Origin: Bacillus subtilis subsp. subtilis str. 168
GTDB lineage: Bacteria; Bacillota; Bacilli; Bacillales; Bacillaceae
Direction: 5' to 3'
DNA: 32,000 nt
Assembly (NCBI RefSeq): GCF_000009045.1
Contig: NC_000964.3
Location: 870,001-902,000 of the forward strand
Shown: positions 13,720 to 23,798 of the stretch, piece by piece
Position numbering within the stretch: position 1 is the first letter of the stretch
How the letters are laid out: each line of letters begins with the position of its first letter
Position numbers and translations under genes: made by a program
Notes under the pieces: model-generated
The model's database searches: none
Told to the model about the DNA's origin: nothing
Seen by the model: only the letters and a program-made list of their open reading frames with translations

Positions 13720-13757
13720 AGATGAAAACGGCGTGTAAGGGAGGAGCGATCAAGGAA

Positions 13758-15575
13758 ATGAATTCGGTCCCAAACGATTTGCAAACCTGGAAACGTTTTG
13801 TGAAAGACGGTGTGCTTGACGAAGCCCGATTAAGAAAACGGATTGCAGAGTCATGGCATCGCTGCAAAAAAGCTGAGGTCAATCCTTATTTAGAAAAAGG
13901 CCCGAAGGTTTTACAGCAAACGGAGCTGGATCAGCAGTCAAAAAAACATTCATTCTTCTTGACGACCGCAAAGCCTTACCTCGAAAAACTGCTGCCTGCC
14001 ATAAAAGAAATGGAAATGATGGCGCTGTTAATTGATTCAGACGGTGTTGTTCTGGCATTGGACGGCCATCCGCGCGCGCTCTATGAAGCCAAACGCATCA
14101 ATTTCGTCGAAGGGGCATGCTGGACAGAAACGGCTGTCGGAACAAATGCGATTGGCACGGCGCTCCACATCAGCGAGCCGGTTGCAATACAAGGATCAGA
14201 GCATTACTCTATCGCTTCCCATCTTTGGAACTGTTCAGCTGCTCCGATTCACCATGAGGATGGCAGCCTTGCGGGTGTAATTGACATATCATGCCCGGCG
14301 GCAGGCGCGCATCCTCATATGCTTGGTATTGCCACGGCGATTGCCTATGCCGCTGAACGGGAACTCGCAGCTAAAAGCCGTGAGAAAGAGCTGGAGCTGA
14401 TCAGCCGTTTTGGGGAGAGAGCTGCATCCAGTGTGCCGATGGTGCTCTGTAATACCAAGCAGCACATCATCAGTGCGAGCATGCCGATTCGAACCTCAAT
14501 GCCGGATTGGCAGGGCCGGCACCTGTACGAGTTGAAGGAACGGGGCTATTCAATCGAAAATGCTGTCACCATAGGAGATGGCGGCACTTGTTTTTATCTT
14601 TCGGAACAAAAGAAAAAGAAGGCGTTTCGATTCAATGGAGTGATCGGGCAAAGCGGCCGATCGCAAGCGATGCTGATGCACCTTGAACGAGCAGCTGCGA
14701 CGGATGCATCGGTCTGTTTGTCGGGTGAAACGGGTACGGGGAAGGAGGTCGCGGCTCGCGCGCTTCATGAGAACAGTGAGAGACGGCACGGTCCGTTTGT
14801 TGCTGTCAATTGCGGAGCGATTCCGTCTGATTTGATTGAAAGCGAACTGTTCGGATATGCAGAGGGCGCTTTTACGGGAGCGAAACGAAATGGCTATAAA
14901 GGCGCCTTTCAAAAAGCGAATCAAGGCACATTATTTTTAGATGAAATCGGAGAAATTTCCCACTCGATGCAGGTTGCACTTTTACGGGTGCTTCAGGAAC
15001 GCAAGATAACGCCAATCGGCGGGACGAAAGAAATTCCGGTTGATATCAGAGTTATTGCCGCCACACATTGTGATTTACGCGAGCTTGCCGAAAACGGAAA
15101 AATCAGAGAGGACTTGTTTTACCGTCTTCATGTCTATCCAATTGAACTCCCTCCATTACGCGATCGCACCGAGGATATCCCGGATCTCTTTGAGTACTAC
15201 AAACAGAAGAATCATTGGCCAGGCGATCTTCCTTCTGATTTTTGTAATGTGCTGAAGCAATGGAAGTGGCCGGGGAATATCCGCGAGCTGTTTAATGTGT
15301 TTGAACGTCTTTCTATCAGATTTCCGGACGGCCGGCTGAGAGATGAATCGCTTCCCGCTTTACTGGAAGCCGCTGGATTGCCGGCCAGCTCTGCAGAAAA
15401 AAAGCCGGCTGCTGCCGGCGTGCTTACTTTTCGTGAGCAAATCCAAAAGGATATGATGATCAAAGCGCTTGAATCTGCAAAAGGAAACGTCTCTCAAGCC
15501 GCAAAAATCAGCGGGATCCCCCGAAGCACTTTCTACAAACGCCTGAAAAAATTCAACTTGTCCGCTGAATCATAA
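13758..15575 (+). CDS. acoR: Sigma-54-dependent transcriptional activator of the aco operon (bEBP)
   Basis: N-terminal sensory (GAF-like) region. AAA+ sigma-54 interaction domain with Walker A GETGTGKE and the GAFTGA loop (EGAFTGA). C-terminal Fis-type HTH ([19 protein letters not shown]). The ORF-track ATG at 13722 lies only 2 nt after the predicted -10 hexamer (13714-13719), upstream of the expected TSS, so ATG 13758 is preferred. Confidence 0.88.
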
Positions 15576-15628
15576 AGCATACTTCCTTCAGGAAATGGAA
15601 ACGTTATGTATTGAAGGAGGGTGTTACG

Positions 15629-15808
15629 ATGAATATTCAAAGGGCGAAAGAAATTGTAGAATCTCCCGACATGAAGAAAGTAACATATAACGGCGTTCCT
15701 ATTTACATTCAGCACGTAAATGAAGAAACTGGAACAGCAAGAATTTATCCGCTTGACGAACCGCAAGAGGAGCATGAAGTGCAGCTGAACAGCTTAAAAG
15801 AGGATTAA
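15629..15808 (+). CDS. sspH: Small acid-soluble spore protein, SspH family (59 aa)
   Basis: MNIQRAKEIVESPDMKKVTYNGVPIYIQHV... is recognised as the SspH family. SD GAAGGAGGG is 8 nt upstream of ATG 15629; the ORF-track start at 15611 precedes that SD. Confidence 0.85.
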   Translation: MNIQRAKEIVESPDMKKVTYNGVPIYIQHVNEETGTARIYPLDEPQEEHEVQLNSLKED

Positions 15809-15811
15809 ACA

Positions 15812-15843
15812 AAAATGGCCCGCTTCATAAGCAGGCCATTTTG
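15812..15843. terminator. Bidirectional terminator between convergent sspH and yfjF
   Basis: Arms aaaatggcccgc / gcaggccatttt (one mismatch). A-run on the left and T-run on the right. Confidence 0.7.
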
Positions 15844-16173
15844 TTATCCGCGCGGCGCAAATAAAATAACACAGACACCGATGAGACAAATGAATGCGCC
15901 GATCCAGTCATACAGATCAGGTGTTTTCCGGTCAACAAGCCATCCCCACAGGACCGCAAGCACGATGAATACTCCGCCATAAGCGGCGTATACACGGCCG
16001 AAAGATGGGAAGGACTGAAACGTCGGAAGAATGCCGTATACAATGAGGATCAGCGCCCCGGCGATTCCGTAGCCAGCTGGCTTTGCCTCTCTCAGCCATA
16101 GCCAAACCAGATATCCGCCGCCAATTTCAGCAAGCCCTGCCGCGAGAAATAAAAGAATGGTAATCAGCATCAT
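15844..16173 (-). CDS. yfjF: Small 4-TM membrane protein, UPF0060 (YnfA-like, SMR/DMT-related) family
   Basis: 109 aa and almost entirely hydrophobic, with the conserved [10 protein letters not shown] motif. SD GAGGAG, with ATG at 16173; the ORF-track GTG at 16179 abuts the SD. It is the last gene of the minus-strand yfj operon. Confidence 0.8.
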
Positions 16174-16222
16174 GAGCACTCCTCAATTTGCATTTATCTT
16201 TCATTATAGAGGAGGAGAGCTT

Positions 16223-16765
16223 TTAAAGCTTCGGATGATTCTCAAATTCCTTCAAATACGCTTTTCGCTGAACCTCTGTAAATTGGCTGATCCAATTGTT
16301 TTGAGCCTCTTCATTCAAATGGGGAAGGATATAGCGTTCAACCGCTTCGAAAAACAGCGGATTCGTGATGATGTTCCAGGTCGGGATTCGAACGATTTTG
16401 CCGTCTGTTTTCTCGATGATAATATCCTCAAAAAAGATCCCTTTCAAACTGTATTGATGGCGTCCCATATAAAGCCGCTTCACCTCGGAAAACAGCACGC
16501 TGCGCTTTCTCAAGAAGATTTCGCCACTAGGTCCGGTCTTTATGGTGAAAATGACATTTCCACGGCTTGTGAACGCAGGAAAAGCCATAAAGAATGTGAT
16601 CAATCCATAAATCATCGCCAGTAATCCGCCGCCCAAATAAAGCAGGGCATATTTAGATTCAAACGTGAGGGCTTCAGACACCAGCCAGACTCCCACAATA
16701 AAGGCGCCCCCTGTAGCGAGGAACAGCCAAGCCCTTAGAAACATCATGCTTTTTACTTCAATCAT
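16223..16765 (-). CDS. yfjE: 2-TM membrane protein, paralogue of YfjD; candidate immunity protein
   Basis: Two N-terminal TM helices (FLRAWLFLATGGAFIVGVWLV; ALLYLGGGLLAMIYGLITFFMAF) followed by a soluble ~110-aa domain. The C-terminal 56 aa are nearly identical to YfjD. Confidence 0.8.
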   Translation of the reverse strand: MIEVKSMMFLRAWLFLATGGAFIVGVWLVSEALTFESKYALLYLGGGLLAMIYGLITFFMAFPAFTSRGNVIFTIKTGPSGEIFLRKRSVLFSEVKRLYMGRHQYSLKGIFFEDIIIEKTDGKIVRIPTWNIITNPLFFEAVERYILPHLNEEAQNNWISQFTEVQRKAYLKEFENHPKL

Positions 16766-16774
16766 GTGCTGCCC

Positions 16775-17332
16775 CTAAAGCTTCGGATGATTCTCAAATT
16801 CCTTCAAATACGCACTGCGTTGGATGTCTGTAAACTGTCCGATCCAATTGCTTTTCGCCTCTTCATTCAGATGTGGAAGGATATAGCGTTCAACCGCTTC
16901 GAAAAACAACGGATTCGGAATGATGTTCCAAGTGGGAATGCGAATGGTCTTCTGATCCACGGTTTGGATCAATATATCTTCTTGGAAGATTCCTTTTAGA
17001 CTAAATTTATGGCGGCTCATCTCAATTTTCTTGATATCAGTAAACGTAACAGACACTTTGTCAGTGAACACTTCTCCATTTTTTCCTGTCTTGATGCGGA
17101 AAATGGTATTTCCCCGCGGGGTGAAAGCCGGAAAGAAGATGATAAATAAATATAAACAAAACAAGGTGAACAGAAAGCCAGCAGGAATGGCTAATAGGTA
17201 ATATTTCGTTTGAAACGTAATACCCATATAAAAGAGCCACAAACATGCTAATCCCATACCGGCAGATCCGACAAAAGCCCATATTCTCAGGAACATTTTG
17301 CTTTTGACTTCAATGATTTCTTGGTTTTTCAA
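16775..17332 (-). CDS. yfjD: 2-TM membrane protein, paralogue of YfjE; candidate immunity protein
   Basis: TTG start 7 nt after the SD AAAGGAG. Same architecture as YfjE. The stop is 9 nt upstream of the yfjE start. Confidence 0.8.
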   Translation of the reverse strand: MKNQEIIEVKSKMFLRIWAFVGSAGMGLACLWLFYMGITFQTKYYLLAIPAGFLFTLFCLYLFIIFFPAFTPRGNTIFRIKTGKNGEVFTDKVSVTFTDIKKIEMSRHKFSLKGIFQEDILIQTVDQKTIRIPTWNIIPNPLFFEAVERYILPHLNEEAKSNWIGQFTDIQRSAYLKEFENHPKL

Positions 17333-17363: not shown

Positions 17364-18131
17364 TCATTTTGAAATGATTTGATTTACAACATCCTTATGA
17401 GCAGGGAGGATAGAAAATTCATTCTGGGTGATGCCTGTGACAAGCCAAGTATGGTGGGCCCCCGGCAGGACGAATGCCATGTCAGCCACTTCAGGAGTGT
17501 TATCTTTTCCATATGCCAGACGCATAAGTGTATCCATTTTCCCTTTCCGCAAAGCCAGATCATTTGCAAATCGGGTAACGTCCTCTTGGTGGTCATGTTT
17601 TTCAAGGAACTCTTTTAGATATGAAGGGTTGTCTGAAGCGCCCTCCAAGAGTTTTTCAAATTCATTTGATGTCAATGTTACAATCGATTCTCTTTTATCC
17701 TCTGTATCTATTATATGTAAAAACTCATCTGTCTTAGCAAGTAACCCTTCACTTGATTCCATTTTTGTAATGCGATGGACTTGTTCATCAAAAAGGAGTT
17801 CGTGAGAGTAGGTGCCGAATTTTGATACATGGCATGACACATTCTGTTCGGCACCTTGCCCGTTAAATTTAGAAAGCTTCACTGTATAGTCAGCGTCGTT
17901 TAATACATGGATAAACGGACAGTACTCGTCCTTTAACCGATATTGATGGTTCCGATATTCCGCTGCATCCTTGGCTAAGAGTGAGCGGCACGCGGCTTCA
18001 AATAAGGCGCCGAGCTGTTCATCTTCTATTTCCGGAAAATAGGCCTGCTTCAAGGCCATTCCCTGTTCAAAAAACCCTTCGCTGTAAAAGCAAAACAAGA
18101 GTTCTTCTATGCTAATTGTAAACTGCTTCAT
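17364..18131 (-). CDS. yfjC: Cytosolic acidic protein of unknown function (255 aa); candidate chaperone/adaptor or immunity factor for YfjB
   Basis: No TM segment or signal peptide, and rich in Glu and Asp. The SD AGGAGA overlaps the yfjB stop, with an 11-nt intergenic gap. Confidence 0.75.
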   Translation of the reverse strand: MKQFTISIEELLFCFYSEGFFEQGMALKQAYFPEIEDEQLGALFEAACRSLLAKDAAEYRNHQYRLKDEYCPFIHVLNDADYTVKLSKFNGQGAEQNVSCHVSKFGTYSHELLFDEQVHRITKMESSEGLLAKTDEFLHIIDTEDKRESIVTLTSNEFEKLLEGASDNPSYLKEFLEKHDHQEDVTRFANDLALRKGKMDTLMRLAYGKDNTPEVADMAFVLPGAHHTWLVTGITQNEFSILPAHKDVVNQIISK

Positions 18132-18142
18132 TGTTTATTCTC

Positions 18143-19366
18143 CTATCCAAATGAAAATTTCCCTTTAAGGAAATGGGTTGCGCCGTGTATAAGCGAATCC
18201 GCTGTTTTCTTTGCTTTTTCCATTCCTTTTTTCGCGCTGTCTATCCCTTTATGTATCGATTTATTCGCCGCATCTATGCCGTCATTCACTGATTTGACGA
18301 CTTTGCCGGCTGATTCCAGCCCTTTTTTGGCTGTATCAACAACAGCATGGATCGGTTCTTTCAGCTTTAAGGCTGCTTTTTCAGCAAAACCGGCTGTATA
18401 TTTGGCGATTTGTTCTCCGACGACTCCGCCAATGTATGAACCTGCTGCCCCAAGAAGGACAGTACCCACAGGTCCTGCAAAGCTTCCGATTGCACCGCCG
18501 ATGACAGCACCAGCTGTGGCACCGCCGGCAACAAAAATCGTATTATTCACAGCATTCCCGACGGCCTTGGCGTTTTCACGCTTGAGAACTTCCGGTTTAT
18601 CCTGGTATTTTGCATAATTTTCAGCAATTTTCACGCCTGCTCCGAATGTTTCGGTCGCTCCGGTAATCAGTGTGGCGGTAATGGCATTTCCTTTCGCGAA
18701 TCTCAAGCCCGTTTTTCCCACATCCTTCAAAGTGGAGCGTACGCCGGCTTCATTAAGAAATCCTTTTGTGTAGCTTCTGACGCTGTTTGAAAAATCCACC
18801 GTGTCCTGAGGAAAGTATTTTGTAAACTTTTTATGTACCAAATCTGAAAATGGACGGTTTGTCTTTTTCAACAAATATTTAGGATTCAAAAGCACTCTTG
18901 CCGCTTTTTGATAACGTGAGCTGTCAACGGCCCTGGAAATATCCAAGAGCAGTTTTGAGTGCTGGGCTGTATGCAAGCCGCTTGGTTGTTTCACAAATTT
19001 CGTAAGCCCTAATCCGTAATATTTTCCCTGCGTCAGCATAAGAGCGGTTAAGCTTGTCATCGTACCGTATTTGTCGTAGGCATTGTAGAGCTTTCGCAAA
19101 ATATCATCTTGTTCCACAAATTTATCGCCTGTTTTTCTGATGAAAATCTCATTGTCACTCAGCTTAGTGACGAGCGCCTTTCCTGAGCTCCACGCATCGC
19201 CCACTCCAGAAAAACAGCTGCTGTAGCGGGGATCGCATTGCAAAATCATCTGCCCCAGCTCCACATGCAGGTCCTTATATTTGTTTTCCATATCAGTTAA
19301 TTCAGTGACTACATCATTTGCAAGCTGTTCGAGCTTATCCGGATCAACTGCAATGTTTCCTGACAC
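18143..19366 (-). CDS. yfjB: Putative T7SS-secreted toxin: WXG/LXG-like helical N-terminus, glycine-zipper and Lys-rich repeat C-terminus
   Basis: The N-terminal ~100 aa are helical with the turn motif VGDAWSSG. Residues ~271-320 form a glycine zipper (GAVIGGAIGSFAGPVG...GAAGSYIGGVVG). The C-terminal 80 aa are amphipathic and Lys-rich with a repeated (V/I)DxA(K/N)K motif. The start is ambiguous: the ORF-track GTG at 19375 overlaps the SD GGGAGG, while GTG at 19366 has 8-nt spacing and is preferred. Confidence 0.8.
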   Translation of the reverse strand: MSGNIAVDPDKLEQLANDVVTELTDMENKYKDLHVELGQMILQCDPRYSSCFSGVGDAWSSGKALVTKLSDNEIFIRKTGDKFVEQDDILRKLYNAYDKYGTMTSLTALMLTQGKYYGLGLTKFVKQPSGLHTAQHSKLLLDISRAVDSSRYQKAARVLLNPKYLLKKTNRPFSDLVHKKFTKYFPQDTVDFSNSVRSYTKGFLNEAGVRSTLKDVGKTGLRFAKGNAITATLITGATETFGAGVKIAENYAKYQDKPEVLKRENAKAVGNAVNNTIFVAGGATAGAVIGGAIGSFAGPVGTVLLGAAGSYIGGVVGEQIAKYTAGFAEKAALKLKEPIHAVVDTAKKGLESAGKVVKSVNDGIDAANKSIHKGIDSAKKGMEKAKKTADSLIHGATHFLKGKFSFG

Positions 19367-19371
19367 ACCGT

Positions 19372-19686
19372 TCACCTCCCGAGTTTATGTCTTTCCTCTC
19401 TTGCTTTACGCTCCAGTTCTTCCATTCTGGCAATTTCAGCTTTTCGTTCTTCTATTTTGACAGCGGCAGCCTTCAGCTCTTGGCTTGTTTCAAGCAGCTC
19501 CTGTTCGAATTGATCGTAGGCGGCTTTCGTTTCCTCGAAATCCTGGTCAAACGAATCTCTTGCTTTGCCCTGCCAAGCATCTCCCAATGCAGATAACCGG
19601 GATTCAAGCAGCATTTTGGAGCTTCTGACCTCTTCTGCGGCCGCACTATACTTGTTTGCCAGCTCAATGACTTTATATGAGTCCAA
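19372..19686 (-). CDS. yfjA: WXG100-family (ESAT-6-like) small helical protein, 104 aa
   Basis: W-x-G motif (DAWQG) at residues 38-40 of a ~100-aa all-helical protein with a coiled-coil charged C-terminus. TTG start at 19686 lies 6 nt after the SD AGGGGA. The ORF-track extension to 19791 encodes an implausible leader and overlaps the promoter region. Confidence 0.8.
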   Translation of the reverse strand: MDSYKVIELANKYSAAAEEVRSSKMLLESRLSALGDAWQGKARDSFDQDFEETKAAYDQFEQELLETSQELKAAAVKIEERKAEIARMEELERKAREERHKLGR

Positions 19687-19770: not shown

Positions 19771-19940
19771 CGTACAAAAGAACCTTTTCATAAGAATTGG
19801 AAGGGCGTATATTCACTTAAAATTCACAGTTGGTGAGACTTTAAGATTACAAAAAAGGTAAAAAAACCAAATCTCTCAGACATAAGGCAAATGAGAAATT
19901 TCCCGCTCTATGGGAAAAAACACTAAAGTTGATCAAATGA

Positions 19941-21371
<1,431 letters not shown>

Positions 21372-21435
21372 ATGAAATTCCCCCATTTTCGAATCTGTAA
21401 TTGTATATAATAGAAAGAAAATGGGGGGATCTGAT

Positions 21436-22200
21436 ATGCAGCTCGAAGAACTGATCAATCAGCACTACAGCAAATTGAATGACAACGATTTTCATATTTT
21501 AAAATATATATTGAATCATAAGCACACATGCTATCACCTTGGAATCGACGCGCTGGCCAAAGCTTGCAGTGTATCGCGTTCCTCAATTTTACGGCTTGCC
21601 CAAAAGCTCGGTTTCAGCGGTTACAGTGAATTTCGCGTCTTTTTAAAGTGGGAAGATCAGCCGGAAGAAGGCGAGAGTATGAGTTTTGAAAAGCTGCTTG
21701 ATGATATTGAAGCAAATTTGAAGTTTTTACGGACAAAGGACATGACGGACATGTGCCAGCTGATTGATGCAGCTGACCGCATTTTCGTCTACGGTTCTGG
21801 AAATGCGCAAAAGATATGCGCCCGCGACCTGCAAAGAATGTTTATTCCGCGCCATCGCTATCTTATTTTGATTGAAGACACAAATGAATTTAATTTGATG
21901 CGCGATGATTTTAAAGTGAACGATCTGTTTATCATCATTTCTCTTTCCGGAGAAACACCGGAGCTGATTCCTCAGGCAAGAATGCTTTCTGCAAAGGGTA
22001 TTCCCTTTATTTCCATTACGAATTTAAAAAACAATGTCCTCGCCCAGCTGACTCCGCATAATCTTTATGCGACAAGCAAACCTGTGACATTAAGCGATAG
22101 AACGGAAATTGTCGCTTTTGCACCGTTTTTTCTCGTTGGCGAAGCATTGTTCCGCGCATATGTTGATTACAAAGAGGCAGAAAAAAATGACAATGAGTAG
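21436..22200 (+). CDS. glvR: RpiR-family transcriptional regulator (HTH_6 + SIS domain) of the glv operon
   Basis: N-terminal HTH (IDALAKACSVSRSSILRLAQKLGFSGY) and a C-terminal SIS domain (VYGSGNAQ). The ATG at 21436 follows the G-rich SD; the ORF-track start at 21421 lies inside that SD. Confidence 0.85.
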   Translation: MQLEELINQHYSKLNDNDFHILKYILNHKHTCYHLGIDALAKACSVSRSSILRLAQKLGFSGYSEFRVFLKWEDQPEEGESMSFEKLLDDIEANLKFLRTKDMTDMCQLIDAADRIFVYGSGNAQKICARDLQRMFIPRHRYLILIEDTNEFNLMRDDFKVNDLFIIISLSGETPELIPQARMLSAKGIPFISITNLKNNVLAQLTPHNLYATSKPVTLSDRTEIVAFAPFFLVGEALFRAYVDYKEAEKNDNE

Positions 22201-22214
22201 CAGGGGGTTCTGGT

Positions 22215-23798
22215 ATGATGCAAAAAATTCAGCGCTTTGGAAGCGCGATGTTTGTGCCTGTTTTATTATTCGCGTTCGCCGGCATTATCGTCGGTATCAG
22301 CACGCTCTTTAAAAATAAAACCCTCATGGGACCGCTCGCCGATCCTGACGGTTTTTGGTATCAGTGCTGGTATATCATTGAGCAGGGCGGCTGGACTGTT
22401 TTTAACCAAATGCCGCTCTTATTCGCCATTGGCATCCCGGTTGCTTTGGCGAAGAAAGCTCAGGCACGCGCCTGTTTGGAAGCGCTTACTGTCTACCTGA
22501 CATTCAACTATTTTGTCAGCGCGATATTGACGGTATGGGGAGGAGCATTTGGCGTCGACATGAATCAAGAGGTCGGCGGAACGAGCGGGTTAACGATGAT
22601 TGCGGGCATAAAAACGCTCGATACCAACATCATCGGAGCCATCTTTATTTCTTCGATTGTCGTCTTTTTGCATAATCGCTATTTTGATAAAAAACTGCCC
22701 GATTTTCTCGGCATCTTTCAAGGCTCAACATATATCGTGATGATTTCCTTCTTTATTATGATCCCAATTGCGTTGGCTGTGTCTTATATTTGGCCGATGG
22801 TTCAATCGGGAATCGGCTCGCTTCAAAGCTTCCTGGTTGCTTCTGGGGCGGTGGGCGTTTGGATATACACGTTTTTGGAACGGATTTTAATTCCGACCGG
22901 CCTTCATCACTTTATTTACACGCCGTTTATTTATGGCCCGGCTGTAGCGGAAGGCGGGATCGTCACGTATTGGGCACAGCATCTCGGCGAATATTCGCAA
23001 AGCGCCAAACCGCTGAAGGAGCTCTTTCCGCAAGGCGGATTCGCGCTTCACGGCAACTCGAAAATCTTCGGTATTCCGGGTATCGCCCTGGCTTTTTATG
23101 TGACAGCCAAAAAGGAAAAGAAAAAACTCGTCGCAGGGCTGCTGATTCCTGTCACACTGACAGCGATTGTCGCCGGTATTACAGAGCCGATTGAGTTTAC
23201 GTTCTTATTCATTTCACCTTTCTTATTTGCGGTTCACGCCGTGCTTGCCGCCACAATGTCGACAGTTATGTATATGGCCGGCGTCGTCGGAAATATGGGA
23301 GGCGGACTGATTGAGGCGGTAACCTTGAACTGGATTCCGCTCTTTGGCAGCCACGGTATGACATATGTGTATCAAATTTTGATCGGGCTCTCGTTTACAG
23401 CAATTTATTTTTTCGTCTTCAGATTTTTAATCCTCAAATTCAATATCGCTACACCAGGACGGGAAAAGGATGAACAGCAGGAAACAAAGCTATATTCGAA
23501 AAAGGAATACAGAGAACGAAAAAACAAGGATGAAACGGCCTCCGCTGCTGAAACGGCTGATGACACCGCTTTTCTGTATATTGAAGCGCTGGGCGGAAAA
23601 GACAACATCACTGAAGTCACAAACTGCGCCACCCGCCTCAGAGTCAGTGTCAAGGATGAAACAAAGGTTGAACCCGACAGCGTATTCCGCGCGCTTGGCG
23701 CACACGGCGTTGTCAGGAACGGGAAGGCGTTTCAGGTAATTATCGGATTAAGCGTGCCGCAGATGCGGGAGCGTGTGGAAAAAATATTGAATCAATAA
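22215..23798 (+). CDS. glvC: PTS maltose/alpha-glucoside-specific EIICB component
   Basis: A ~440-aa polytopic EIIC domain followed by an EIIB domain with the phospho-Cys motif NCATRLRV. Also called malP. Confidence 0.9.
   Translation: MMQKIQRFGSAMFVPVLLFAFAGIIVGISTLFKNKTLMGPLADPDGFWYQCWYIIEQGGWTVFNQMPLLFAIGIPVALAKKAQARACLEALTVYLTFNYFVSAILTVWGGAFGVDMNQEVGGTSGLTMIAGIKTLDTNIIGAIFISSIVVFLHNRYFDKKLPDFLGIFQGSTYIVMISFFIMIPIALAVSYIWPMVQSGIGSLQSFLVASGAVGVWIYTFLERILIPTGLHHFIYTPFIYGPAVAEGGIVTYWAQHLGEYSQSAKPLKELFPQGGFALHGNSKIFGIPGIALAFYVTAKKEKKKLVAGLLIPVTLTAIVAGITEPIEFTFLFISPFLFAVHAVLAATMSTVMYMAGVVGNMGGGLIEAVTLNWIPLFGSHGMTYVYQILIGLSFTAIYFFVFRFLILKFNIATPGREKDEQQETKLYSKKEYRERKNKDETASAAETADDTAFLYIEALGGKDNITEVTNCATRLRVSVKDETKVEPDSVFRALGAHGVVRNGKAFQVIIGLSVPQMRERVEKILNQ

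Follow-up and report, generated by a model that had tools for sequence, protein, structure and literature searches.

A predicted, family-conserved glycine-zipper hairpin in the probable membrane-inserting toxin domain of Bacillus subtilis YfjB

Introduction

EsxX from Staphylococcus aureus ST398 and TelE from Streptococcus gallolyticus are T7SSb LXG toxins that lack an enzyme domain and have an extended glycine zipper towards the C-terminal end; EsxX depolarises the membrane, TelE permeabilises it, and glycine mutants of TelE lose toxicity (PMC12744356, PMC10434224). A glycine zipper is defined as (G/A/S)xxxGxxxG or GxxxGxxx(G/S/T) in a hydrophobic helix (Kim et al., 2005, as given in PMC12744356). 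The EsxX and TelE systems combine membrane immunity (ExiCD) with zipper-binding cytoplasmic proteins (ExiAB, TipE), an arrangement that is conceptually like the pair YfjD and YfjC considered here. TspA from S. aureus, which we compare by its description, is a membrane-depolarising T7SSb toxin with the membrane-bound immunity protein TsaI; it is like YfjB in that export is needed to kill, and differs from it in the family of the immunity protein. Moreover, phage tape-measure and ejection proteins and the T6SS proteins Tse4 and Tde1 share with YfjB a GxxxG-rich helix that is followed by a GP turn and another helix, and their zippers serve the formation of a DNA channel or the translocation of a separate toxin domain; for Tde1 the resemblance of the zipper to tape-measure proteins has already been remarked.

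YfjB is the sole T7SS effector of B. subtilis for which the membrane is the proposed target, and the six LXG toxins known are, to our knowledge, nucleases. The reading of YfjB as a membrane toxin is already known from a 2023 review and a 2023 preprint on strain NCIB 3610, which reported GxxxGxxxG motifs and two predicted TM segments and put forward a pore-forming hypothesis (Kobayashi, 2023; 10.1101/2023.08.02.551746). In that work, expression of YfjB and YfjC resulted in more than 10% propidium-iodide (PI)-positive cells and in cell death, as read from PI staining of colonies, immediate PI entry lying beyond the preprint's test. YfjC was required for toxicity and YfjB alone was not toxic, so that in vivo the zipper does not suffice unless YfjC is present. 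YfjD acted as the antitoxin, the yukE T7SS operon was needed for competition, YfjA was needed for competition but not for toxicity, and YfjE and YfjF had no role in competition (Kobayashi, 2023). Because deletion of the yukE operon rescues a yfjD mutant, export is needed to kill (Kobayashi, 2023).

The locus analysed here is the same gene in the same operon as the YFJ toxin of NCIB 3610, with no biological difference, and an EspG-like YfjC and T7SS dependence are likewise described in the preprint (Kobayashi, 2023). What we add is the conservation of the zipper with its invariant GP turn, the occurrence of the domain on LXG scaffolds, the YfjC-like genes that follow the toxin domain, and a YfjC model that matches EspG only; the Lys-rich motif copies and a polar block at residues 250-280 likewise go beyond the earlier description.

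Results

The yfj operon

All positions refer to the window, the whole stretch of 32,000 nucleotides from B. subtilis 168 that was analysed, in which the operon lies on the (-) strand (Table 1). The YfjB reading frame is 99% identical to B. subtilis proteins, with 404 of 407 residues identical in the B. subtilis protein P0001, and the translation of 18146..19375 (-) agrees with the peptides quoted in an earlier note on this DNA, whose span of 18146-18565 corresponds to YfjB residues 271-410. The true start of yfjB is likely the GTG at 19366, which gives 407 aa and has the RBS GGGAGG 6 nt ahead of it. Residue numbers in this paper follow the longest ORF, which begins at the GTG at 19375 and has 410 aa; published positions are three lower because databases annotate 407 aa. 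A 113-aa antisense ORF at 18276..18617 (+) was not taken as a gene; its richness in Pro and Ala comes from reading Gly/Ala codons as their reverse complement.

Table 1. Positions of the yfj genes and of the YfjB segments in the window
Feature	Positions	Strand	Description or basis
yfjA, WXG100 protein, 104 aa	19372..19686	(-)	TTG start 19686 with RBS; annotated as 104 aa in L004
yfjB, toxin gene	18143..19375	(-)	longest ORF 410 aa
N-terminal helical hairpin, YfjB 10-122	19010..19348	(-)	WXG100-like, AWSSG motif
Middle domain, YfjB 123-215	18731..19009	(-)	beta-hairpin and short helices; AF2 pLDDT about 65-84
Helix alpha-1 of toxin domain, YfjB 216-249	18629..18730	(-)	AF2, translation
Polar block NYAKYQDKPEVLKRENAKAVGNAVNNT, YfjB 250-280	18536..18628	(-)	most conserved stretch of the entire family
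Glycine-zipper helical hairpin, YfjB 281-322	18410..18535	(-)	sequence, conservation, AF2
Amphipathic helical tail, YfjB 323-410	18146..18409	(-)	spectrum; AF2 helix at low confidence
Three motif copies, YfjB 346-384	18224..18340	(-)	
VDTAKKG, YfjB 346-352	18320-18340	(-)	
IDAANKS, YfjB 367-373	18257-18277	(-)	
IDSAKKG, YfjB 378-384	18224-18244	(-)	
yfjC, 255 aa, EspG-like T7SS chaperone	17364..18131	(-)	PF27351/PF27282 from precomputed annotations
yfjD, 185 aa, DUF5381	16775..17332	(-)	Pfam E 1.3e-75; two N-terminal TM helices and C-terminal domain
yfjE, 180 aa, DUF5381 paralog of yfjD	16223..16765	(-)	Pfam E 1.6e-61
yfjF, YnfA/UPF0060 small membrane protein, last gene of the operon	15844..16179	(-)	Pfam E 1.1e-50, NCBIfam E 4.1e-43
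Terminator-like hairpin right after yfjF	15812..15842	(-)	14-bp stem, then T-run

YfjA matches the Pfam family WXG100 (E 4e-12) and NCBIfam TIGR03930 (E 1.4e-13); for its gene, a start at the ATG at 19791 was discarded as an over-extension of the mechanical ORF. The start of yfjC lies 11 nt beyond the yfjB stop. Local Pfam and NCBIfam searches assigned no family to YfjC. Its AF2 model (pLDDT 90.5, pTM 0.85) was compared with the PDB using Foldseek, and the top 18 matches were all to EspG1, EspG3 or EspG5 (E 3e-9 to 1e-5, TM 0.52-0.69), EspG chaperones being the only significant matches. The model thus predicts an EspG-like fold for YfjC, at the level of this fold match and with no sequence similarity to mycobacterial ESX EspG, and the clients differ, being a toxin domain for YfjC and a PE-PPE pair for EspG. 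With a WXG100 partner next to the effector gene and an EspG-like chaperone, the operon shows the features of a T7SSb effector cluster, and the delivery by a contact-dependent system that the earlier note had suggested is supported by the published need for YfjA and the yukE T7SS in competition (Kobayashi, 2023).

The same note had taken the membrane proteins encoded downstream as candidate immunity proteins. This stands for the antitoxin YfjD; it fails for YfjC, which is EspG-like and itself required for toxicity, and for YfjE and YfjF, given the published competition results (Kobayashi, 2023). No match to DUF5085, the family of TipE and ExiAB, was found in YfjC to YfjF, and a literature search on DUF5381 found nothing. 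The YfjB system differs from those of EsxX and TelE in its partners, which are EspG-like PF27351/PF27282 and DUF5381 proteins as opposed to DUF5085 proteins with a GyrI-like fold and polytopic ExiCD proteins, and in their effect, since toxicity depends on YfjC here and is neutralised by ExiAB and TipE there.

Domain organisation of YfjB

The N-terminal hairpin, modelled by AF2 as helices 12-46 and 61-122, shows weak WXG100 matches in 5 of 22 aligned homologs, and LXG (PF04740) had no match in YfjB or in any of these 22 proteins. Unlike EsxX and TelE, YfjB thus has no canonical N-terminal LXG domain and was rejected as a member of the LXG family, although relatives of its C-terminal domain do have LXG. 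Residues 10-122 are presumed to be a T7SS targeting module that would pair with YfjA.

Helix alpha-1 includes the weakly hydrophobic stretch AITATLITGATETFGAGV (231-248), which is rich in small residues and reaches a Kyte-Doolittle maximum of 0.93, so that the weaker hydrophobic segment previously noted ahead of the zipper is real. Within alpha-1, N230 and G245 are invariant in the 22 homologs and E242 and G247 nearly so. The polar block that follows (NYAKY...LKRENAKAVGNAVNNT) had been absent from the earlier note. N253, Y254, L264, R266, E267, N268, A269, K270, V272, G273 and A275 are invariant in the 22 homologs, and N253 and L264 keep their invariance once LXG-type relatives are included.

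Pfam and NCBIfam searches of YfjB returned no enzyme domain, in agreement with the previous statement that no catalytic motif is visible, and on these grounds an enzymatic toxin was rejected. The AF2 model of YfjB has a mean pLDDT of 59, a moderate confidence that falls under 50 in the tail, and a Foldseek search of the full model against the PDB found nothing (best E 0.19). Because this model is of low confidence and all-helical, we draw no fold-based inference for YfjB.

A conserved glycine-zipper hairpin

The translation confirms the in-register GxxxG glycines that had been reported for this region and extends them by one residue, G285: zipper 1 is an i+4 chain of five glycines (G285-289-293-297-301), and past the turn at G301-P302 comes zipper 2, with G304 and G312-316-320. 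AF2 predicts helices at 261-300 and 302-337 with a break at 301 (pLDDT about 70-74). Taken singly, the pattern in the YfjB sequence is moderately unusual, an equal GxxxGxxxG count or i+4 chain length being reached with P = 0.003 when the whole protein is shuffled and with P = 0.017-0.038 when the 40-residue Gly-rich segment alone is shuffled; conservation is for this reason the stronger evidence. In the 22 homologs, which extend down to 29% identity, the invariant residues are G289, G293, G294, P302, G304, G312, G316 and G320, with G297 and G301 close to invariance, and with LXG-type relatives added G289, G297, G301, P302, G304, G312, G316 and G320 are still invariant. Judging from these alignments, no other hydrophobic element of the family is as conserved as the zipper, and with its glycines in register, their conservation in the family and a predicted helix it agrees with the definition of the motif. 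Typical TM helices are more hydrophobic than this region, whose Kyte-Doolittle maximum is 1.57, and both helix arms are short; these points count against an explanation by membrane insertion.

Against the Pfam family Gly-zipper_Omp (PF13488), YfjB scores 18.7 bits (E 0.0017), under the gathering threshold of 25, and against DUF6861 (PF21724) 13.4 bits, under the threshold of 28. At E<0.01, 21 of the 22 homologs match glycine-zipper families (Gly-zipper_Omp, Gly-zipper_YMGG or Rick_17kDa_Anti; best E 4.7e-7) and 15 match DUF6861. Precomputed annotations assign PF13488 to many YfjB homologs, and the YfjB orthologs of the B. pumilus group carry the NCBI name 'DUF6861 domain-containing'. We take the relationship of YfjB to DUF6861 to be distant and at family level only, as these profile matches suggest. 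A chance origin of the zipper pattern, as a product of a low-complexity stretch rich in Gly and Ala, would be in line with the P values obtained within the Gly-rich segment and with the scores of YfjB under the Pfam thresholds. However, the glycines and the central Pro are invariant whichever N-terminal scaffold carries them and in relatives with as little as 27-33% identity, and the genetics show that the gene is functional (Kobayashi, 2023); conservation effectively refutes this reading, whose likelihood we regard as negligible.

EsxX has the same zipper-GP-zipper layout as YfjB, and a 29-residue EsxX zipper peptide scored 12.5 bits against the YfjB-family profile, aligning on its central GP, the best of 1000 shuffles reaching 7.4. 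When the zipper was used in a profile search of the PDB, the best match was the tape-measure protein 9ki1_g (E 1.3e-11), followed by the cargo protein gp45 of a crAss-like phage (7qog_M, E 5e-4), and two proteins with tape-measure Pfam domains (P0080, P0102) were among the matches of the phmmer search described below. Common ancestry of the YfjB and tape-measure zippers is uncertain because the likeness is confined to about 50 low-complexity residues.

These matches would suit a zipper that is a device for insertion or translocation only, the damage being done by the polar block or by a YfjB-YfjC complex in or on the target. The need for the zipper in Tde1 translocation, the conservation of the block 250-280, which exceeds that of the zipper, and the need for YfjC in toxicity (Kobayashi, 2023) point in the same direction. 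On the other hand, Pfam and NCBIfam place no enzyme-like domain before or after the zipper, the polar block amounts to about 30 residues of predicted helix, the fold of YfjC matches chaperones only, and in EsxX and TelE the zipper domain alone depolarises or permeabilises the membrane. We therefore consider such a division of labour improbable.

The amphipathic tail

The C-terminal end of YfjB, previously described as amphipathic and Lys-rich, indeed contains 17 Lys in 89 residues (322-410), where the net charge is +8, and its hydrophobicity spectrum shows one sharp peak at 100 degrees (power 18 versus at most 2 elsewhere); the conserved aromatic motif FLKGKFSFG closes it. The three copies of a short Lys-rich motif are present as had been claimed, and the tail contains 6 pairs of 7-mers with 5 or more of 7 residues in common, a self-similarity reached in 0 of 2000 shuffles. 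The earlier note's emphasis on this triple repeat implies an essential, separate membrane-binding module, which the self-similarity, the strong amphipathic moment and the net charge would favour. Tandem Repeats Finder, however, detected no repeat in the DNA under the motif copies, and the third copy lies within a 7-residue insertion, GIDSAKK, that is specific to the group of B. subtilis, B. spizizenii, B. inaquosorum and B. atrophaeus and is missing in B. halotolerans, B. mojavensis, B. tequilensis and the B. pumilus group. In distant and LXG-type relatives the entire motif stretch is absent and the tails are neutral or acidic, within a family-wide range of net charge from -5 to +10. The repeat is thus not a core element, and we find a separate module quite improbable.

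What the relatives do conserve in the tail is the amphipathic periodicity alone, the 100-degree peak being kept in 66 of 68 of them. Tail lengths after Pro302 cluster at 101, 108 and 115 residues, the commonest three thus differing by 7. From these comparisons, the Lys-rich copies are best explained by the periodicity of the amphipathic helix, as opposed to a functional repeat in their own right; on this view they would be dispensable decoration of a helix that is itself conserved.

Distribution of the domain and its partner

For relatives of the toxin domain, a phmmer search of 1.84 billion representatives gave 76 matches at E<1e-3. In addition, a set of 68 related loci was retrieved with an alignment that yields only YfjB-type loci. 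About 60 of these have a WXG100 gene upstream, an EspG-like gene 9-12 nt downstream and then 1-7 genes for YfjD-type DUF5381 membrane proteins, the copy number varying across species, so that the A-B-C-D order is kept. The operon is chromosomal and conserved at the same site in many Bacillus species, and in L006 a gene for an EssC-like ATPase adjoins the cluster.

The domain is also found on LXG proteins. P0070 combines LXG (E 1e-51) with a YfjB-type C-terminal domain (39% identity, E 1.7e-11), and P0085, P0104 and P0117 are further cases; among those of the 76 matches that carry an organism name, which are the minority, these four LXG proteins are all from Bacillaceae, with no LXG protein from Staphylococcus or Streptococcus. 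YfjB-type C-terminal domains occur as well in L071 and L073, both LXG, and in L072, a protein of 409 aa with no Pfam match on record.

A YfjC-like protein is encoded downstream of the toxin in about 60 YfjB-type loci and in 7 of 7 LXG or other loci examined, and thus with each architecture that was sampled; all four LXG-type toxin loci examined have one. Conversely, of four loci that were found independently, starting from YfjC-like proteins, three carry upstream a toxin with a YfjB-type C-terminal domain, and in the fourth, L074, a membrane protein and a YfjC-like protein form an orphan pair. A first search for YfjC homologs reached close relatives only, and a profile search was used for distant ones. 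Between YfjC and the LXG-locus proteins, BLASTP was not significant and phmmer gave E 7e-5; the relationship is established by a profile that excluded the LXG-locus proteins and gave E 6e-11. Likewise, YfjD and a 170-aa protein of L001 were not significantly similar by BLASTP and were connected by a profile that excluded the L001 protein (E 8.6e-7).

Discussion

From our analysis, residues ~216-410 of YfjB are probably the toxin domain of a T7SSb effector, one that inserts into the membrane and is non-enzymatic. We base this reading on the in-register glycines and invariant Pro, the lack of an enzyme domain in Pfam and NCBIfam, the hairpin predicted by AF2, the conserved periodicity of the tail, the modular occurrence on LXG proteins, the T7SSb gene context, the published YFJ genetics and the analogues EsxX and TelE. 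A membrane-targeting, non-enzymatic toxin domain had been the central proposal of the earlier note, and together with the conserved zipper and the results of the domain searches it is the published PI uptake that lends it support (Kobayashi, 2023). Several observations count against it, namely the PF13488 score under threshold, the moderate confidence of the AF2 model, the requirement for YfjC, the limitation of death upon overexpression to about 10% of cells (Kobayashi, 2023), and the fact that the zipper hairpins of phage tape-measure proteins and of the T6SS protein Tde1 serve translocation and not killing.

In a producer cell, the WXG-like N-terminal hairpin of YfjB would form a secretion-competent bundle with YfjA, while YfjC, whose binding site we infer from gene co-occurrence and whose fold is that of the model, may keep the hydrophobic C-terminal domain soluble and stable. 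The T7SS of the yukE operon would then export YfjB onto closely apposed sister cells of the biofilm, as the published genetics indicate (Kobayashi, 2023). On the target, the amphipathic tail, which is cationic in B. subtilis, may settle on the anionic membrane surface, and the hairpin 281-322 could insert from the outer face and self-associate through its GxxxG motifs into a putative ion-leaking channel or lesion, leading to the loss of membrane integrity that the published PI uptake reports. In the membrane of an immune cell, the two-TM protein YfjD, with its published antitoxin role, presumably blocks insertion or assembly.

In addition, YfjB seems to serve as a signal between cells that is specific to the biofilm, and signalling might even be its chief function: a contact-dependent sub-lethal perturbation, or a specific interaction in the recipient, would damp DegS-DegU and delay the sporulation of kin, with killing only where immunity is lacking. 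Deletion of yfjB or yfjC raises DegSU-regulated expression, overexpression of YfjBC blocks that of bslA, and a double mutant of yfjD and the yukE operon resembles the operon deletion (Kobayashi, 2023). The chromosomal operon at the same Bacillus site, unlike strain-variable polymorphic toxins, and the low lethality are also in favour. The 1-7 DUF5381 copies, however, are immunity-type arrays that point to antagonism, the C-terminal domain has been transferred onto LXG polymorphic-toxin scaffolds, L074 holds its orphan pair of chaperone and membrane protein, and the wild type outcompetes the operon deletion (Kobayashi, 2023). A chiefly signalling role is thus a serious alternative, albeit in our view an unlikely one. 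Mechanistically, it overlaps with the toxin-domain explanation.

In PPE proteins it is the hydrophobic helical tip that EspG caps, and YfjC might act on the hairpin of the YfjB domain in a similar way. In LXG loci, the LXG domain already has separate helpers of its own, which are Lap-type proteins (YwqH-like, DUF5344). We tentatively propose, as something that could nearly as well be true as not, that the YfjC family (PF27351/PF27282) is a dedicated partner of the glycine zipper and not a generic targeting chaperone, capping the tip of the helix-GP-helix element and forming with it an obligate two-protein module that shuttles between WXG-like and LXG scaffolds; toxicity of YfjB only with YfjC would follow from such a module. 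The YfjC-like genes of the LXG-type loci, the toxins found beside YfjC-like proteins and the orphan pair of L074 speak for this proposal, as do the separate helpers of the LXG domain. Alternatively, YfjC may bind a different region of the toxin, or PF27351 proteins may accompany other toxin types. The toxin domain and its EspG-like partner would constitute a portable functional unit, which may explain why YfjB needs YfjC. Within this domain, conservation singles out G297, G301, P302, G304, G312 and G316 and the polar block at 253-275.

The yfjA-yfjF operon and its gene starts

The feature under study lies at the 3' end of an ORF of 410 codons whose product is identical at 404 of 407 positions to the B. 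subtilis protein P0001 (396 database members), and the window therefore contains the B. subtilis yfjA-yfjF operon. For yfjB, translation probably starts at GTG 19366, which gives a protein of 407 aa, has GGGAGG 6 nt ahead of it and is the point at which every homolog begins; on this start, the residue numbers of the earlier note, which we retain, thus equal database numbering plus 3. Mechanical ORF calls are too long in this region: GTG 19375, which opens the longest yfjB ORF, overlaps the TGA stop of yfjA, and yfjA itself begins at its TTG codon, not at ATG 19791 (139 aa). An antisense ORF over the zipper region (18276-18617, plus strand, 113 aa, Pro/Ala/Thr-rich) was rejected as a gene; its composition follows from Gly and Ala codons, which spell Pro and Ala on the opposite strand.

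Features of the yfj operon (window coordinates) and of related loci (coordinates within each locus, L handles)
Feature	Position	Strand	Remarks
yfjA, WXG100	TTG start 19686	minus	104 aa
yfjB, toxin gene	18143..19375	minus	longest ORF 410 codons
polar block NYAKYQDKPEVLKRENAKAVGNAVNNT	18536-18628	minus	YfjB residues 250-280; 11 invariant positions in 22 homologs
yfjC	17364..18131	minus	
yfjD and yfjE, DUF5381	16223-17332	minus	
yfjF, UPF0060			last listed gene of the operon
strong terminator-like hairpin	15842..15812		
small membrane proteins, ~102-114 aa	L071 2728-3977		
small membrane proteins, ~102-114 aa	L072 2801-3912		
small membrane proteins, ~102-114 aa	L073 3630-3965		
small membrane proteins, ~102-114 aa	L002 7625-7960		
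small membrane proteins, ~102-114 aa	L001 2788-3424		
small membrane proteins, ~102-114 aa	L074 3632-3961		
orphan pair	L074 3632-4798		
bPH_4 membrane proteins	L069 7739-8221		LXG-type locus, DUF5381 position

A conserved glycine-zipper hairpin

The earlier note read the YfjB C-terminus as a membrane-permeabilising toxin domain, and a bioRxiv preprint on the same operon shows that this interpretation was right in substance and not new (Kobayashi, 2023; 10.1101/2023.08.02.551746). In the hydrophobic C-terminal region, that work placed GxxxGxxxG glycine-zipper motifs in two predicted TM segments and proposed a pore-forming role; pore formation and depolarisation are putative activities. When YfjB and YfjC (the "YFJ toxin") were co-expressed, over 10% of the cells in colonies became PI-positive, an effect of neither protein alone, and YfjD was identified as the antitoxin. 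Competition required YfjA and the yukE T7SS operon, with no role for YfjE or YfjF, and deletion of the yukE operon rescued a yfjD mutant, so killing requires toxin export; delivery depended on the biofilm matrix (10.1101/2023.08.02.551746). The YFJ toxin also damped DegS-DegU signalling (10.1101/2023.08.02.551746); that the role of YfjB is primarily a signalling one is a less likely alternative, and such a role would fit the same molecular action.

The zipper glycines, the Lys-rich motifs and the other quoted elements were all found where the earlier note had placed them. The glycines form two i+4 chains, of five (285-289-293-297-301) and three (312-316-320) residues. The GxxxGxxxG count is unusual under whole-protein shuffling (P = 0.003) and less so when shuffling is confined to the Gly-rich 40-mer (P = 0.017-0.038). 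From the single sequence alone the zipper is therefore suggestive rather than compelling, and it is conservation that argues strongly for it. Across 22 homologs with identities as low as 29%, the invariant positions are G289, G293, G294, S298, P302, G304, T305, G312, G316 and G320, with G297 and G301 almost invariant. Extending the set to canonical LXG proteins that have a related C-terminus leaves G289/297/301, P302 and G304/312/316/320 invariant. The AlphaFold2 model of YfjB, of moderate quality (mean pLDDT 59, ~70-74 across residues 216-337), places one helix at 261-300 and another at 302-337, with the break falling precisely on G301-P302, and thus predicts a helical hairpin with one zipper per arm. 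YfjB scores below the Pfam thresholds for Gly-zipper_Omp and DUF6861, which most of its relatives do match, and has no LXG domain by Pfam.

A variable tail and a highly conserved polar block

The tail (residues 322-410) carries 17 Lys and a net charge of +8, with a single sharp spectral peak at 100 degrees. The "triple Lys-rich repeat" of the earlier note is real as three recurrences, the 7-mer self-similarity being reached in 0/2000 shuffles with no DNA-level repeat beneath the copies. As a conserved element of the domain it did not hold up, since the third copy is restricted to certain lineages and tail charge is variable. This copy sits within a 7-residue insertion, GIDSAKK, carried by B. 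subtilis, B. spizizenii, B. inaquosorum and B. atrophaeus and missing from B. halotolerans, B. mojavensis, B. tequilensis and the B. pumilus group; distant and LXG-type relatives are without the entire motif-copy stretch. Beyond the central Pro, tails most often have 101 (19 loci), 108 (10 loci) or 115 (16 loci) residues, in steps of seven, and net charge across the family ranges from -5 to +10 (median +3), yet the 100-degree peak is present in 66/68 members and an aromatic C-terminal motif (…SFG, …SFF, …WFN or …GWI) is retained. What is conserved is therefore an amphipathic helix, its commonest lengths in 7-residue steps, with an aromatic C-terminus. Neither lysine richness nor the trio of motif copies is kept across the family, and the comparative data make it unlikely that the Lys-rich motifs are an essential module.

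The most conserved stretch of the family, mostly invariant, was overlooked by the earlier note. It is the polar block at residues 250-280 (NYAKY…LKRENAKAVGNAVNNT), in which N253 and L264 are kept even among LXG-type relatives, and it might line a channel or contact YfjC or YfjD.

The toxin domain is portable and is accompanied by YfjC-like proteins

A phmmer search with residues 226-410 against 1.84 billion representatives returned 76 hits at E<1e-3, which include, besides YfjB-type proteins, canonical LXG proteins: P0070, P0085 (Pontibacillus), P0104 (Alkalicoccobacillus) and P0117 (Sutcliffiella), the last two named "T7SS effector LXG polymorphic toxin" by NCBI. P0070 combines an LXG domain (E 1e-51) with a C-terminal domain 39% identical across 144 residues (E 1.7e-11). 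The LXG-protein alignment spans polar block, zipper hairpin and tail, more than glycines alone, and by this homology the toxin domain is portable between scaffolds.

In a neighbourhood sample of 60 species genomes plus metagenomic loci, ~60/68 loci show the order WXG100, toxin, YfjC-like gene and one to seven DUF5381 genes, with the YfjC-like gene typically starting 9-12 nt past the toxin stop codon; in one locus (L006) an EssC-like ATPase gene directly follows the cluster. B. subtilis YfjC matches PF27351 and PF27282, and each of the four LXG-type toxins examined (L001, L002, L068, L069) likewise has these families encoded downstream. The YfjC-like proteins of LXG loci are recovered at E 6e-11 by a profile built without them, and phmmer with YfjC alone finds the L001 protein at E 7e-5. 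Conversely, of four loci reached independently by profile search through YfjC-like proteins, three have an upstream toxin with a YfjB-type C-terminal domain (HMM E 1e-15 to 1e-18; LXG in L071 and L073, 409 aa in L072), and in the fourth, L074, a 109-aa membrane protein and a YfjC-like protein form an orphan pair. Gene context thus suggests that the YfjC family follows the toxin domain rather than the N-terminal scaffold. Where the upstream region was recovered (L002, L069, L071, L073), LXG loci have their own Lap-type helpers (YwqH-like and/or DUF5344).

The orphan pair, without an adjacent zipper toxin, adjoins an opposite-strand Colicin-DNase/WHH toxin and a recombinase; an orphan chaperone would be odd if promoting toxicity were the only function of YfjC.

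YfjC had been predicted to be EspG-like (10.1101/2023.08.02.551746). Its AlphaFold2 model (pLDDT 90.5, pTM 0.85) matches solely mycobacterial EspG1/3/5 chaperones (top 18, E 3e-9 to 1e-5, TM 0.52-0.69), and at the level of the model independently confirms an EspG fold. What is new here is modest: a portable unit of toxin domain and EspG-like partner, with exact residues and deletions worth testing.

Membrane partners

The membrane partner varies: YfjB-type loci and L001 have DUF5381, the LXG subgroup has a ~110-aa family in arrays of one to three, and L069 has bPH_4. Members of the ~110-aa family, which lie between an LXG-type zipper toxin and the YfjC-like gene, mostly share EYYEWGIF and YNWFxRK motifs, have no Pfam hit on record and are likely the immunity proteins of the LXG-type subgroup, replacing DUF5381. 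DUF5381 copies number one to seven and differ between species (L008-L067), one locus having a duplicated B-C-D-D unit, a pattern like that of expanding immunity-gene arrays. YfjE gives a faint match to a PH domain (SOS1_NGEF_PH, E 0.075), which together with bPH_4 in L069 suggests that DUF5381 may be a bacterial PH-like family anchored in the membrane; by the positive-inside rule we infer a cytoplasmic C-terminal domain.

A proposed mechanism and related systems

We consider it rather likely that YfjB, exported by the T7SS and chaperoned by YfjC, inserts its zipper hairpin as an ion-leaking assembly that YfjD blocks. YfjA and the WXG-like N-terminal hairpin of YfjB would pair into a T7SS recognition bundle, while YfjC, with its modelled EspG-like fold, would stabilise the hydrophobic toxin domain; judging from co-occurrence, it most plausibly caps the helix-GP-helix tip, as EspG caps the PPE tip. 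After export onto neighbouring cells, as published, the amphipathic tail would dock at the membrane surface and the hairpin would insert from outside and self-associate, which fits PI uptake. YfjD, the published antitoxin, would block this step within the membrane.

The hairpin matches a hydrophobic segment of the phage tape-measure protein 9ki1_g (E 1.3e-11) and the crAss-like phage cargo protein 7qog_M (E 5e-4), but not significantly the membrane-inserting region of ClyA (E 0.1). Tape-measure proteins (P0080, P0102) are also among the phmmer hits, and a comparable resemblance has been described for Tde1, a T6SS effector (PMC10240207). Over ~50 low-complexity residues, such similarity points to shared design, not necessarily common descent. 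Besides these phage proteins, a VgrG3-like T6SS protein (P0075) has the zipper-GP-zipper hairpin in its N-terminal part, which suggests a membrane-insertion cassette reused widely in phage tails, T6SS and T7SS. An unlikely alternative to the ion-leaking assembly that we favour is that the zipper serves only for insertion or translocation and that the activity lies elsewhere.

Functionally, YfjB is nearest to the T7SSb membrane toxins EsxX, TelE and TspA. The EsxX zipper peptide has the same zipper-GP-zipper layout and, searched with the YfjB-family profile, reaches 12.5 bits, more than any of 1000 shuffles. Among the phmmer hits, most of them without an organism name, no Staphylococcus or Streptococcus LXG protein was identified, which falls short of a firm exclusion. 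The accessory families differ, YfjB occurring with EspG-like and DUF5381 proteins and EsxX/TelE-type toxins with DUF5085 and ExiCD, and YfjC raises toxicity whereas ExiAB and TipE neutralise their toxins. YfjB would therefore act like these toxins, with shared family membership not established.

The flanks of the operon (13722-15808 and 20022-23798) are ordinary B. subtilis chromosome genes: a sigma-54 activator with a GAF domain and sspH on one side, and a family-4 glycosidase, an HTH_6/SIS (RpiR-type) regulator and a PTS EIICB on the other. The operon occupies the same chromosomal position in related species, unlike typical strain-variable polymorphic toxin islands.
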